64,000 nt of DNA from an uncultured bacterium (GCA_903870275.1 CAIQCK010000103.1:3819-67818); one strand, 5' to 3'; positions 57,370 through 63,609 are shown, numbered from the stretch's first letter. Numbers and translations are program-made. Notes: generated by a model from the letters alone, not told the origin.

Positions 57370-60300
57370 TCATTTGCGGAGGTTGGCGCGCAGCTCGGCG
57401 ATTCGGTCCTGGTAATATGCCTTCTCGACGCTGGAGAGGTTGGCCTCCAACTGGTCAATCTCAGCGAGTGACGGAAGGTGAGTTTCTGTATATGCCGGCC
57501 GGAAGAGGAACAGGTTCAATACTTGTTCCCTCAGATCATCGAAGTATTGTCCGTTGCGCTTCACCGTTCGCGGTGGCAGCAACATGACCATGCGTATCAC
57601 TTCGTTTCGAGCGTCCGTCTCGTCGCTTTCAATCAAGTATCTGCTCGCGGAATAACGAATCTTTGGATGATCGGCCGCAAGCTGTTTGATCGCAAAGACT
57701 TTGATCTCCTGCCCCTTGAGTCCATGAACCGCTTCATAGATGGCATCGCCGAAACAATTGTTTTTTCCGGGCTGCCCGCGAAGTAAAAGAGCCAGTTCGA
57801 GTTTGGCAAGGCCGTAGCCTGGATCGTGTTTGATAAGATACCGCAGCAAGGCCGCCTGAATCGTGCAGGCCCACCCGCCGTTGGAAGATGAATACAGGGC
57901 CTTTACCTCGTCGAGCAAGGCTGGTGAGCCATAACGCCCGATCACGAAGCTCATCTTGAAAAGGTCGCAAGACCGCTGACCACGCCACGAAAGAGCCGCA
58001 ACCCGAAAGGCCGCATCCAGTTCCGGTACAGGTTGCTCCGGAAGCGATGCCAGTCCTTTGAAAGCAAATCGCGGGTAGCCGCTGCGAATGTCCTCCAGCA
58101 AAAGTTTGCGCGCAGCGTCTGAACCCAGTTCGATCAGACGCTGCATAATGTCGTCGGCAATCGTGTGGCCGGCGTCTTGTTCGGGTTTGTCCGGCAGACG
58201 CAACATCGCTTCAAGCACGGGCTGGAATTGCTGGCAGCGCACGCGTGACCACATCTCATCGCCGAGCACGGCACGTTGTTCGTATTCCTGGAGTCCCGGG
58301 AATGCCTGTGCCAAAGCAAGGCGATCCTTCATCGAAGCACCCTCGCCAACGTTAAGATGATACCGAAGCGCCACACGGCTCTTGAGCGGGCGAAACTGCA
58401 TGGGTATGGACGAAACATCGTAACCGGGATCGCCGGACGGTGAACGTTGCGGCTCCTCGATGCTCACCGGTTTGGTTACCCGATTCTCCAGGCTGCGTTC
58501 GCCGCCTGTGCCGTCATAAGCGATGGTCAATGACCAGGTGTAGTTGGTTCCGTATTTGTCCACCCATTGGTCTGCAAACAGATACATCTCATGATTGTCG
58601 AAGTCTTTGAAGCGGTCAAAAGTATAGCCTCTGAAGCGGCCAAAAGTTTCGCAACTGTTCCAAGCCGGTATGTTTCTTTCGGCCTCGGCGCGCGTCATGC
58701 CCGCTTTGATCGAAGCCGCTTGTGCCATCCAAAGCTTCTTGTCCTCCGGCGAACGCATGACTTTGTTGACCTTGACCGGTGCCAGCACTCTTTCCTGATT
58801 GTTTGGAATCCCGAACTTCTCTCTTTTGGAAACGTCGTAAGTGACTATCACTCGCCAGTCTGCCGAGACGAAGTACTGTTCGGTCATAGAATAGAAGTCG
58901 CCCCACCCGCTCCCGCAAAAGTCATAACTGTTTGAAGCCGGAGGAATCCATCGCGGCAAGATCTTCTCCACCTCCGCCCGCGTCATGCCCACCTTCACCG
59001 TCGCGGCACGGGCTTGCCAATCTGTTAGAGTGTCTTTGTCCTCAACGCGCACTGCCGCGTCATCAGCGTTCATTAACACCACCCGCAAACCGCGGTTGCC
59101 AATGCGATTGGGAGGCGCGCCGCCGTTGCCGCGGCAACTCGACGTGAGAAAGGCGGGATCGCGCATAAACGCCCCGCCTCGCAACACATGGCCTGTGCCG
59201 GAAACCGGGCCTTGAGGGTCTACCGGGACATTGGACAGATGCGGCTCATACCAATCCCTGCACCACTCCCAAACATTGCCGTGCATGTCATAGAGGCCCC
59301 ACGCGTTCGGCTCCTTCAACCCGACCGGGTGGGGCCTGTTTCCCGAGTTGGATTCATACCAGGCGTACATGCCAAGGCGGGTTTCGTCGTCGCCGAAGGA
59401 GTACTTGGTGGTGCTGCCGGCGCGGCACGTGTATTCCCACTGCGCTTCGGTCGGCAGCAGCGCCTTCATGCCGGGCACTTTCTCGCTCAGCGTGGCCAGA
59501 AACGGCTGGCAATCGTCCCATCGGACATTCTCCACCGGATTCCTCGGGTCTTTGGTGGGGTGCGGATTGCCGCCCAAGACGGCCAGCCATTGCTCCCGTG
59601 TTACTTCGTATTTCCCCATGTAAAACGGCTGGGTGAGAACGACCCGGTGCTTTTCGTTTCCATCGCCCATCATGAACGAGCCGCCGGGGATGAGGACAAA
59701 CGCCATTGTCACACCGCCGCCCAGGTTCACGGTGAGGGTTCTTTGCGCTTTTCGTATATCGGGCTCGCGGCTGGCTTTCGCAATGTCCGGGTGCCGCAGG
59801 ATACGGCCCTTGCCGGTGACCTCGTTCACGTCAATCGAATGAAAGACCGTTTCGGCGCGATCACTGACCAGACCCAATGCTCGCTCGTTCGGAAGTTTCC
59901 ACAATCTCTGGCGGCTGGCGTCGCTGAAGTCGGTTTTCCATTCGTTCATCAATCGGCCATCAAGAAAGGCGCGTACGCCGTTCTTCCGCACTTGCAGGAC
60001 CGAAGAATAAACCCGGTTGTTCGCCAGAGAGTGAGGCGTCCACACCGTCAGGGGGTTGTTGTTCGCCGTCCTGCCCTTCACCATTTCGAAGCCGAAACAA
60101 CTGTTGCACCAATGCCCCATCACCCAAAGAGCGGGTCTTTCGTCCTGCGAGAACAATTGCCCAACCGGCTCTTCTCCTTCGGTGCGGGTAAAGACTATGC
60201 GAAAATCGTATTCCTCCGGCGGCTCGTAGGGAATTTGCAGCCGCGCTGCCTGCACATCATCCGCACAAACCAGAGCCTCATCTCGCATCCTCCACCTTCC

Positions 60301-63300: not shown

Positions 63301-63609
63301 CGGATCGCCTACGCGTTCGGGGGCGAGCAGTTTGAGTGCGACGAGGCGGTCGAGGTTCTTCTGTCGCGCCTTATAGACCACGCCCATGCCGCCACGGCCA
63401 AGGTATTCGAGAATTTCCAGTTGCGGGAAGTGCGGCGCCAGCTCCAGTGGGGACAGGGCCTTGCGGGACGCGACAGGTTCCGCATCCGGCTTCGTCGGCG
63501 CCATCGCCTCCGCCATCAGACAGCGGGGGCAAAGACCCGCCGTGGACGCCACCGGCAAAACTGCGCCGCACTTCGGGCACGCATTTGTCGCTGAAGAGGG
63601 TTCGCTCAT
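57370..63609 (-). CDS. Giant membrane Ser/Thr protein kinase: Zn-ribbon + STK domain + TM + beta-helix + duplicated ~190-aa modules + FGE/SUMF1-type domain + two BamE-like domains + C-terminal helical repeat domain
   Basis: Start proposed at ATG 63609 (MSEPSS...), since the upstream 114 codons overlap the sigma-factor gene.

Domain evidence from the translation:
- N-terminal Zn-ribbon: CPKCGAVLPVASTAGLCPRC.
- Kinase subdomains: GRGGMGVVYKA, HRDVKPENLLL, DFGIAK, PAYMAPE.
- One transmembrane helix: LVFAAFAAVAFALAGLLWW.
- Cys-ladder beta-helix repeats: CQF, C.F, HCAFV.
- Two homologous modules: LIDP.KDAV.G.W ... IPYEPPEEYDFRIVF.RT ... VRKNGV.A.L.
- FGE/SUMF1 signature: GGSFMMGD ... RVVLTQPFYMGKYEVT ... 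HGNVWEWCRDWY ... RGGAF.
- Two BamE-like modules: GMTRAEVEKILP, AGMTRAEAERNIP. Confidence 0.85.
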   Translation of the reverse strand: MSEPSSATNACPKCGAVLPVASTAGLCPRCLMAEAMAPTKPDAEPVASRKALSPLELAPHFPQLEILEYLGRGGMGVVYKARQKNLDRLVALKLLAPERVGDPQFAERFAHEARALAMLNHANIVTVYDFGQAGGFYYLLMEFVDGVNLRQAMKAERFTPEQALAIVPPVCEALQYAHEHGIVHRDVKPENLLLDKDGRVKIADFGIAKMLGRSTDISVCESNDARAGVPTSRSEPGGTPAYMAPEQKAHRVTDHRADIYSLGVVLYELLTGELPGKPIEPPSRKVQIDVRLDEVVLRALEKEPERRYQQISEVKTRVETITASQPTQSAGGAAGAAATPPRQRAPLVFAAFAAVAFALAGLLWWSPWRTDKQNESYLPLNIEKDYAFTDTSRPYVLNGTYAVKENIRHAIEIKVAPGVEIRGGDIYLNKDGEFAIEGTPEKPAVLRGVTIRQNLNPHGLKAKWAVFDRCQFEKRGAWFSYYSSKWVADSCLFYKSAFPSLKGTDFGIQFTHCAFVSMRFPEIAHRRLKDKPFDHMKLLRSKWNTISSCQFVDCAVPPTVMWCAEGSNFMGCTFISGESFESEVPTDTVAYVADTLGTPPHETWRVFPASHAPLNVSYAKKPYETVTFHTISEPSGSSLPELSADKKLCGWLSSKTVVSNQGSGKQTFTLEALATLPENDAAWSRAVNLMPLIDPVKDAVKGAWTFQGDSLVSGSGKHERLMIPYEPPEEYDFRIVFIRTSGNDCIAQYVTHVGRAALWQMAGDHNKVFGFEHINGQDSQHNATTVKRQDFLKNGQIYTSLLRVRKNGVKAYLNNELISIWNTDFKDGTLHPHWDIPDHNCLGVGSFLSRVVFQEIQLLEITSKGRVVPHLGIAEAGRETAETQLQKRLTSGLDDAEMAAPAFAQKPTSTMLKLPASLGSGIGAAFLEIPQPQLFLVGFKVSFGEEKNQRVVKSLQPIYRAGMKKFLGAVQGEVQEPTQTVEAKPGYAVGGLNGMGIVFLNGFEIEFMKIQGAGGGLDTHDGYKSGWLGGKNSVGDTIKLAGMGKPIVGVFGRSDTVVRSLGLVDDGSIFEPGSADAHLTSAAAWPGSVQLLPLIDPIKDAVLGRWRMRDEALVCADDVQAARLQIPYEPPEEYDFRIVFTRTEGEEPVGQLFSQDERPALWVMGHWCNSCFGFEMVKGRTANNNPLTVWTPHSLANNRVYSSVLQVRKNGVRAFLDGRLMNEWKTDFSDASRQRLWKLPNERALGLVSDRAETVFHSIDVNEVTGKGRILRHPDIAKASREPDIRKAQRTLTVNLGGGVTMAFVLIPGGSFMMGDGNEKHRVVLTQPFYMGKYEVTREQWLAVLGGNPHPTKDPRNPVENVRWDDCQPFLATLSEKVPGMKALLPTEAQWEYTCRAGSTTKYSFGDDETRLGMYAWYESNSGNRPHPVGLKEPNAWGLYDMHGNVWEWCRDWYEPHLSNVPVDPQGPVSGTGHVLRGGAFMRDPAFLTSSCRGNGGAPPNRIGNRGLRVVLMNADDAAVRVEDKDTLTDWQARAATVKVGMTRAEVEKILPRWIPPASNSYDFCGSGWGDFYSMTEQYFVSADWRVIVTYDVSKREKFGIPNNQERVLAPVKVNKVMRSPEDKKLWMAQAASIKAGMTRAEAERNIPAWNSCETFGRFRGYTFDRFKDFDNHEMYLFADQWVDKYGTNYTWSLTIAYDGTGGERSLENRVTKPVSIEEPQRSPSGDPGYDVSSIPMQFRPLKSRVALRYHLNVGEGASMKDRLALAQAFPGLQEYEQRAVLGDEMWSRVRCQQFQPVLEAMLRLPDKPEQDAGHTIADDIMQRLIELGSDAARKLLLEDIRSGYPRFAFKGLASLPEQPVPELDAAFRVAALSWRGQRSCDLFKMSFVIGRYGSPALLDEVKALYSSSNGGWACTIQAALLRYLIKHDPGYGLAKLELALLLRGQPGKNNCFGDAIYEAVHGLKGQEIKVFAIKQLAADHPKIRYSASRYLIESDETDARNEVIRMVMLLPPRTVKRNGQYFDDLREQVLNLFLFRPAYTETHLPSLAEIDQLEANLSSVEKAYYQDRIAELRANLRK

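Follow-up and report, generated by a model that had tools for sequence, protein, structure and literature searches.

What is a bacterial Ser/Thr kinase of 2,079 amino acids (aa) made of, how did its two repeated modules come together, and what might it sense? The gene that raises these questions lies on the minus strand of a 64,000-nucleotide (nt) stretch of DNA from an uncultured bacterium (GCA_903870275.1, CAIQCK010000103.1:3819–67818), hereafter called the window, and its host is a Verrucomicrobia bacterium. An earlier reading of this DNA, made from the sequence alone (the sequence-only reading), had called attention to an unusual domain architecture and an internal duplication in the giant kinase. 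The window kinase is an unusually long member of an already described class of receptor kinases from PVC bacteria (Planctomycetes, Verrucomicrobia), in which receptor Ser/Thr kinases are very numerous. New here are the particular long combination of domains and a branch of its repeated module that escapes the Pfam model PF06439 (DUF1080).

The repeated module and its fold

The two-copy module described by the sequence-only reading is real: residues 681–893 and 1083–1296 align with 44% identity and a single gap (E 2e-64), and the motifs listed for it (LIDPxKDAV, IPYEPPEEYDFRIVF, VRKNGV and TDF) occur in both copies at the places reported. The duplication had also been said to be visible in the DNA. 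The 18-mer quoted as an example, ACGCCGTTCTTCCGNACT, does occur exactly twice (at 59975 and 61184, with none expected), but likeness of the copies at this level is confined to short patches of 54 nt (85%, under IPYEPPEEYDFRIVF), 45 nt (76%) and 22 nt (91%, under VRKNGV). No further copy of any ectodomain module was found elsewhere in the window.

Neither copy matched any Pfam or NCBIfam model, even at E ≤ 10, in agreement with the earlier failure to assign the module to a named family. With both copies as queries, a word-indexed search brought up 63 proteins, mostly stand-alone hypothetical proteins of ~210–340 aa with a hydrophobic N-terminus; the few among them with a named source derive from Verrucomicrobia metagenome-assembled genomes (MAGs). 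In an alignment of 56 module sequences, E-Y-D and one R were invariant, with near-invariance at W, PP, F, V, LG and E, and the signature proper to the module reads P-P-E-E-Y-D-F and V-R-K. In the window protein, the invariant residues are aa 730–732 and 805 of copy A and aa 1133–1135 and 1208 of copy B. Comparison of the module profile with the sequences of the PDB gave nothing meaningful.

AlphaFold2, run on the 56-sequence alignment, produced a very confident all-beta model (predicted local distance difference test, pLDDT, 95.7; predicted template-modelling score, pTM, 0.91). By structure comparison, the model is a concanavalin-A (ConA)-like beta-sandwich nearest to carbohydrate-binding CBM66, DUF1080 structures and L-type lectins, with a non-catalytic CBM66 as the top match; Foldseek agreed on the ConA-like neighbours and added a 3-keto-glycoside eliminase (9fbe). 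A match to a lectin or LamG family, which the sequence-only reading had named as the finding that would speak against its view of the module, therefore exists at the level of fold (CBM66, DUF1080 and L-type lectins) but not at that of sequence family. CBM66 and DUF1080 are two names for one domain, which is overrepresented in Planctomycetes (PMC5673643). With the PF06439 model, 8 of the 56 module relatives gave weak matches (best E 2.2e-6), and the window copies gave none at E ≤ 10. We do not claim membership of PF06439 at the sequence level, since no profile match was seen in either copy and an hhalign comparison of the module profile with a genuine DUF1080 protein, encoded in the genome sequence L005, returned a probability of 4%. 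Relative to CBM66/DUF1080 proteins (PF06439, the 3-keto-disaccharide hydrolase family; B. subtilis SacC CBM66, PDB 4b1m), the module shows only ~13% identity and an invariant signature of its own. Judged by its modelled fold, the module is best placed in the concanavalin-A-like lectin/glucanase superfamily as a family of its own, so far uncurated, whose closest structural neighbours are CBM66/DUF1080. It is not a new kind of domain, though it deserves its own family model; defining the family (6,066 cluster representatives, often with two to six copies per kinase) would better annotate thousands of proteins. The confident structural model, lying beside CBM66 and DUF1080, suggests glycans as candidate ligands.

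Mosaic origin and recurrence of the architecture

Pairwise comparison of module copies told against the idea of a duplication event within the gene. Copy B shares 85–86% identity with the module that follows the jacalin-like domain in three other proteins, namely the orthologous kinase of L001, a secreted protein of L002 and P0187, whereas copy A shares 42–51% with any other copy, copy A of the L001 kinase included; for scale, the window protein and its L001 orthologue share 79% identity in the kinase domain. The jacalin-like domain and copy B form a conserved cassette in L001, L002 and P0187, with 85–92% identity in relatives. A recent tandem duplication within the gene is rejected by this identity matrix, and because copy B is nearer to cassette copies elsewhere than to copy A, the two copies are old paralogues joined by domain shuffling.

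Related genomes hold the same pieces in other arrangements. L001, a Verrucomicrobiota MAG, encodes a kinase of 1,108 aa with the shared N-terminus and the module–jacalin–module block, lacking the beta-helix, FGE (formylglycine-generating enzyme), BamE-like and C-terminal pieces. The last 184 aa of this orthologue (L001:4411–4962) show no relation to the window protein and match no Pfam model. The LacPavin Verrucomicrobia MAG carries pieces outside a kinase at two loci: L002 encodes a secreted protein of jacalin-like domain, module and HEAT repeats, and in L003 (L003:4558–6382 and L003:10001–13386) a stand-alone module gene (218 aa, P0005) adjoins a stand-alone FGE-sulfatase gene of 300 aa, with a 585-aa protein composed of the BamE-like pair and the C-terminal domain (63% identity) a few genes away, followed by a 543-aa paralogue. 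Because its pieces exist elsewhere as separate exported proteins or in other kinases, the window protein is read as a mosaic that grew by domain accretion.

For the frequency of the architecture, an exhaustive module-profile search of 1.84 billion representatives was used, in which 6,066 proteins passed E ≤ 1e-3 and 1,828 passed E ≤ 1e-30. Architectures were counted in 204 retrieved sequences, annotated with the window protein's own segments. One module copy was present in 81 of these, two in 89 and three to six in 34. Kinases accounted for 45 of the 204, with one to six copies of the module placed C-terminal to the kinase domain; an FGE domain was present as well in five of the 45 (P0081, P0090, P0100, P0102 and P0123), and the beta-helix region in one (P0089). 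Segment-based searches of public proteins found no full-length relative of the window kinase, and the genomes gave only partial orthologues.

The architecture is therefore less unusual than the sequence-only reading had proposed: a kinase, a transmembrane (TM) helix and a variable number of modules recur together in public metagenomes, in five cases with FGE, and the partner domains have already been surveyed (PMC11032199). In that survey of Planctomycetota kinases, the sulfatase-modifying-factor (FGE-sulfatase) domain ranked third in abundance among partners and, in single-pass kinases, lay mostly on the periplasmic side, and DUF1080 was the most abundant exclusively periplasmic partner (PMC11032199). 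The window protein shares with the PVC single-pass receptor kinases, surveyed for Planctomycetota (PMC11032199), a cytoplasmic Pkinase domain, one TM helix, a periplasmic FGE-sulfatase domain and DUF1080-type jelly rolls; it differs in that its jelly rolls are divergent and unseen by PF06439, and in the unusual length of its chain, which holds at least seven kinds of ectodomain piece. Apart from the module family and chain length, the kinase is a typical member, though a very large one, of a class already known. That seven extracytoplasmic domain types, which elsewhere are separate exported proteins, stand in one chain is a testable hint that they work jointly.

Domains and topology of the receptor

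Coordinates of the gene, its domains and its neighbours are collected in Table 1. The longest mechanical open reading frame (ORF) on the minus strand spans 57370–63951, within which the 6,240-nt frame of the gene is uninterrupted. The start codon is the ATG at 63609 (MSEPSS...), with AGGA just before it, and the L001 orthologue opens with the same N-terminal peptide; these agree with the public gene calls, and the coordinates given by the sequence-only reading (57370–63609) are correct. The kinase frame stays open for 114 codons above this ATG (63654–63951), where it overlaps the 3' end of the upstream sigma-like gene in a different frame. Taking the longest ORF at face value would wrongly give the kinase 2,193 aa. 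The earlier domain list was likewise essentially right for the Zn-ribbon, kinase, beta-helix-like region, two modules and FGE domain; the BamE-like call is weak, and the jacalin-like and C-terminal domains were absent from that list.

Table 1. Positions of the receptor kinase gene, its encoded domains and adjacent genes in the window (all on the minus strand)
Feature	Residues (aa)	Position (nt)	Basis or remark
Complete gene, receptor Ser/Thr kinase, stop codon included	1–2079	57370..63609	ORF and translation; identical call on at least 11 public contigs
Cytoplasmic CxxC...CxxC zinc-ribbon-like motif	8–31	63517..63588	CPKC aa 11–14, CPRC aa 27–30
Hanks-type Ser/Thr kinase domain	65–330	62620..63417	Pkinase and PknB-like match, all catalytic motifs
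Single TM helix	345–367	62509..62577	Only strong hydrophobic segment
Right-handed beta-helix-like domain	378–577	61879..62478	Followed by low-confidence linker, aa 578–680
ConA-like (CBM66/DUF1080-like) module, copy A	681–875	60985..61569	
Probable jacalin-like beta-prism domain	903–1075	60385..60903	Between modules; weak Pfam and PDB profile matches; cassette with copy B
ConA-like (CBM66/DUF1080-like) module, copy B	1083–1278	59776..60363	Repeat matches; 85–86% identity to L001, L002 and P0187 copies
FGE-sulfatase-type domain, non-catalytic	1303–1511	59077..59703	PF03781; TvpA match; Cys pair replaced
BamE/BLIP-like unit 1	1529–1617	58759..59025	Repeat-profile E 1.5e-32
BamE/BLIP-like unit 2	1623–1720	58450..58743	Repeat-profile E 1.1e-29
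Conserved C-terminal domain (354 aa)	1726–2079	57373..58434	57–70% identity to P0211–P0216
Upstream gene, 3' part, probable divergent ECF-type sigma factor		63654..64000	222 aa in full, cut by window end; complete in L007
Three downstream genes: HEAT-repeat 55720–57192 (490 aa); WD40 53231–55657 (808 aa) and 50748–53222 (824 aa)		50748..57192	Pfam

On the cytoplasmic side, the N-terminal Cys motif gave a weak match to Pfam Zn_ribbon_3 (E 0.24) and is retained in the L001 orthologue. The Pfam Pkinase model (PF00069) covers aa 65–285 with 171.7 bits against a cut-off of 31.7, and a PknB-type model extends this to aa 330. GRGGMGVV at 71 (GxGxxG), VALK at 90, HRD at 184, DFG at 204 and APE at 244 are all present; by these motifs the domain is predicted to be catalytically intact, and nothing points to a pseudokinase. 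Between DFG and APE, the activation-loop segment (62863–62973, aa 213–249) is 11 residues longer than that of the L001 orthologue and rich in S, T and R. The TM helix has a Kyte–Doolittle value of 2.34 in a 19-residue window at aa 345–363, and its extension to aa 367 was read from the flanking sequence. Because there is a single TM helix, and assuming that the ATP-facing kinase lies in the cytoplasm, ~1,710 residues are extracytoplasmic.

For the beta-helix region (aa 373–680), the homologues were four stand-alone proteins and P0089 only. AlphaFold2 on this shallow alignment gave a core at aa 378–577 with many short strands (pLDDT ~70–89) and an unstructured tail at aa 578–680 (pLDDT <30). Structure matches of the core were to beta-solenoids and include PL6 and pectate lyases. 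The earlier beta-helix call is thus supported at fold level, and with moderate confidence the core is modelled as a right-handed parallel beta-helix. Between the modules, a jacalin-like (beta-prism I) domain is probable on profile evidence: 10 of 15 weak matches of aa 903–1075 in the PDB (E 0.085–3.3) were jacalin-related lectins, banana lectin and SalT among them.

The FGE-type domain matches PF03781 strongly (E 4.9e-39, 134.9 bits against a cut-off of 23.3), and its best solved relative is the non-catalytic TvpA of T. denticola (2y3c, E 1.3e-30), followed by PvdO and true FGEs. In the active site of FGE, Cu(I) is bound by a Cys pair, C272/C277 in S. coelicolor and C336/C341 in human. In the alignment (2q17/6muj), S. 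coelicolor GGSYLCHDSYC stands opposite GGAFMRDPAFL in the window protein, so that one Cys is replaced by Arg and the other by Leu (LC-HDSY-C to MR-DPAF-L). With both Cys replaced, neither formylglycine formation nor FGE-like Cu(I) binding is expected, and a catalytic FGE or a copper-redox sensor was rejected on the basis of this active-site alignment. The sequence-only reading had proposed ligand binding or redox sensing for this domain, subject to a check of the catalytic and copper-binding residues; the redox and copper part falls with the Cys pair, and the domain may still bind a ligand. The domain aligns over most of the fold with FGEs (SUMF1 and bacterial) from S. coelicolor, T. curvata and human, but lacks both Cys and groups with binding or structural FGE-fold domains (TvpA, PvdO and PorK/GldK) rather than with the enzymes.

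Two BamE-like modules had also been reported. Both units are real internal repeats and carry the motif W..RAA.vK.GMTRAEVEKILP, but their likeness to BamE is weak and below threshold, and profile matches to BLIP in the PDB (E 0.2) do not extend beyond the GMTRAEVEKILP motif. The C-terminal domain has stand-alone kin in P0211–P0216, proteins of 373–405 aa with hydrophobic N-termini. A HEAT-like reading of this domain was dropped, as hhalign against the downstream HEAT protein gave a probability of 0.2%.

Candidate ligand, proposed signalling route and gene neighbourhood

With moderate confidence as a whole, we propose that the kinase responds to a glycan-type ligand and acts on a pathway run by the sigma factor encoded next to it. 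The proposal builds on the observed domain boundaries and folds, the intact kinase motifs, the loss of the FGE catalytic residues, the adjacent genes and the repeated occurrence of the architecture, from which we infer the class of ligand, the target of the kinase and the signalling output. The lectin-like ectodomain, in the order beta-helix, module A, jacalin-like domain, module B, FGE fold without catalytic Cys, two BamE/BLIP-like units and C-terminal domain, would bind a ligand outside the cytoplasm, for which a glycan or envelope polysaccharide is the most plausible candidate. This contact would alter the oligomeric or activity state of the kinase, which would then phosphorylate the ECF (extracytoplasmic function)-like sigma factor encoded 44 nt upstream, as neighbouring kinases activate ECF43-type sigma factors, and the phosphorylated sigma factor would switch on a regulon.

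In favour of a glycan sensor we count the intact kinase, the single TM helix, the ConA-like modules, the beta-helix, the weak but consistent jacalin signal and the TvpA/PvdO-like FGE domain without its Cys; most of the assigned ectodomain folds are typical of carbohydrate-binding or carbohydrate-active proteins. The surroundings of stand-alone module genes were counted in the same direction. On a 5.98-Mb contig (L005:6001–10572), the stand-alone module P0041 directly precedes two strong PF06439 (DUF1080) genes and a ThuA gene, possibly a sugar-metabolism context for the module family, and another stand-alone module gene adjoins a GH76 gene.

The sigma-like gene ends 44 nt before the kinase start on the same strand, with no anti-sigma gene between, and this adjacency is kept in L001 and L007. 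The 222-aa protein is probably a divergent ECF-type sigma factor, judging from its profile matches. In several ECF groups (ECF43 among them, and some that Planctomycetes proteins typify), the sigma gene stands beside one for a Ser/Thr kinase; members of ECF43 are activated by phosphorylation, and an adjacent Ser/Thr kinase can activate ECF sigma factors (PMC8999054). The ECF43 pairs EcfP–PknT of Vibrio parahaemolyticus and EcfK–PknS of Xanthomonas citri likewise combine a transmembrane Hanks kinase with a small ECF-like gene and have no anti-sigma gene between the two. Compared with these pairs, the sigma-like protein of the window lies below the ECF thresholds and is likened to them by gene adjacency, and the kinase ectodomain is far larger.

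Several results weigh against the glycan-sensor proposal. Carbohydrate binding by the module is extrapolated from its fold, because identity to the CBM66/DUF1080 structures is so low and the DUF1080 profile–profile comparison failed; the ConA-like fold is found in non-glycan binders too. Other assignments sit below their thresholds: the Pfam Jacalin model (PF01419) on aa 903–1075 (E 0.032, 15.1 bits, cut-off 22), the Pfam BamE model (PF04355; E 0.011, 15.9 bits, cut-off 23.2, and E 0.0003, also below the cut-off, for the relative P0217), and, for the upstream protein, PF07638 Sigma70_ECF (E 0.0067 and 0.0096 in two orthologues) and TIGR02937 (E 0.0021). Against the sequences of the PDB, the upstream protein gave chance matches only and no relative, and the C-terminal 354 aa, which received no assignment, gave no Pfam match and none in the PDB by profile. 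The gene neighbourhoods of stand-alone modules vary.

An alternative that we consider unlikely is a sensor of envelope integrity or of protein complexes, in which the ectodomain would dock periplasmic or outer-membrane proteins, such as the exported HEAT and WD40 proteins, through its BamE/BLIP-like units and report stress in envelope assembly, in the way that PASTA kinases keep watch over the cell wall. BamE and BLIP are folds that bind proteins, the FGE domain has no catalytic Cys pair, and the three downstream genes on the same strand each encode a protein with a signal-peptide-like N-terminus. These HEAT and WD40 genes may form an operon with the kinase; in L007, the HEAT gene and then the first WD40 gene follow the kinase in the same order as in the window. 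In three relatives (the L002 protein, P0210 and P0219), the same ectodomain modules occur joined to HEAT repeats. However, the BamE likeness on which docking would depend is below threshold and limited to one helix motif, and the beta-helix, the two ConA-like modules, the probable jacalin-like domain and the FGE fold, which is C-type-lectin-like, are best known from carbohydrate-binding or carbohydrate-active proteins.

More improbable still is an enzymatic ectodomain, in which the modules would be enzymes of the 3-keto-glycoside hydrolase/eliminase type, or the beta-helix would cleave a polysaccharide as a lyase or hydrolase, and the kinase would couple signalling to turnover. The DUF1080 family does include 3-keto-disaccharide hydrolases, the eliminase 9fbe is among the Foldseek matches, PL6 and pectate lyases are among those of the beta-helix, and the E-Y-D and R of the module are invariant in 56 sequences; yet neither copy is recognized by PF06439, the profile–profile comparison with a DUF1080 protein failed, the top structural match is a non-catalytic CBM66, the FGE domain has lost its catalytic Cys, and the beta-helix model is of moderate confidence. 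It is hardly credible that the chain is an artefact, either a chimera of the assembly or a read-through across neighbouring genes that in truth stand apart, as in related MAGs. The ectodomain pieces are indeed separate genes in L002 and L003, but the frame is open without break over 6,240 nt, at least 11 contigs of public assemblies carry a gene call for exactly this product of 2,079 aa, a recurrence that rules out an assembly chimera, and other public kinases show the same types of junction (kinase–module–module–FGE and kinase–module–module–beta-helix).

To a bolder reading we give a low probability: the giant kinase could be a "Rosetta stone" fusion, and the separate exported proteins of its relatives could be parts of a multi-protein sensing complex in the periplasm of Verrucomicrobia, so far undescribed, whose output would enter a Ser/Thr kinase–ECF sigma pathway. 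This reading is based on the separate exported beta-helix, module, jacalin-plus-module, FGE, BamE-like/C-terminal and HEAT/WD40 proteins of related genomes, some of which have neighbouring genes. Should the fusion reflect physical association, the Pfam-invisible module family, which counts over 6,000 cluster representatives, would be the defining ligand-binding component of the complex.

Farther from the kinase, on the plus strand (43866–50591), an ORF of 2,241 aa carries a passenger-associated-transport repeat (PATR, E 9e-10) and probably encodes a giant autotransporter-like surface protein. A minus-strand ORF of 682 aa (48657–50705) that overlaps it has no family match and is probably spurious. 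Two back-to-back histidine kinases with multiple PAS/GAF domains lie on the minus strand at 33267–36356 (1,029 aa, with a receiver domain) and 36757–41385 (1,542 aa), in a region of the window that is dense in signalling genes.

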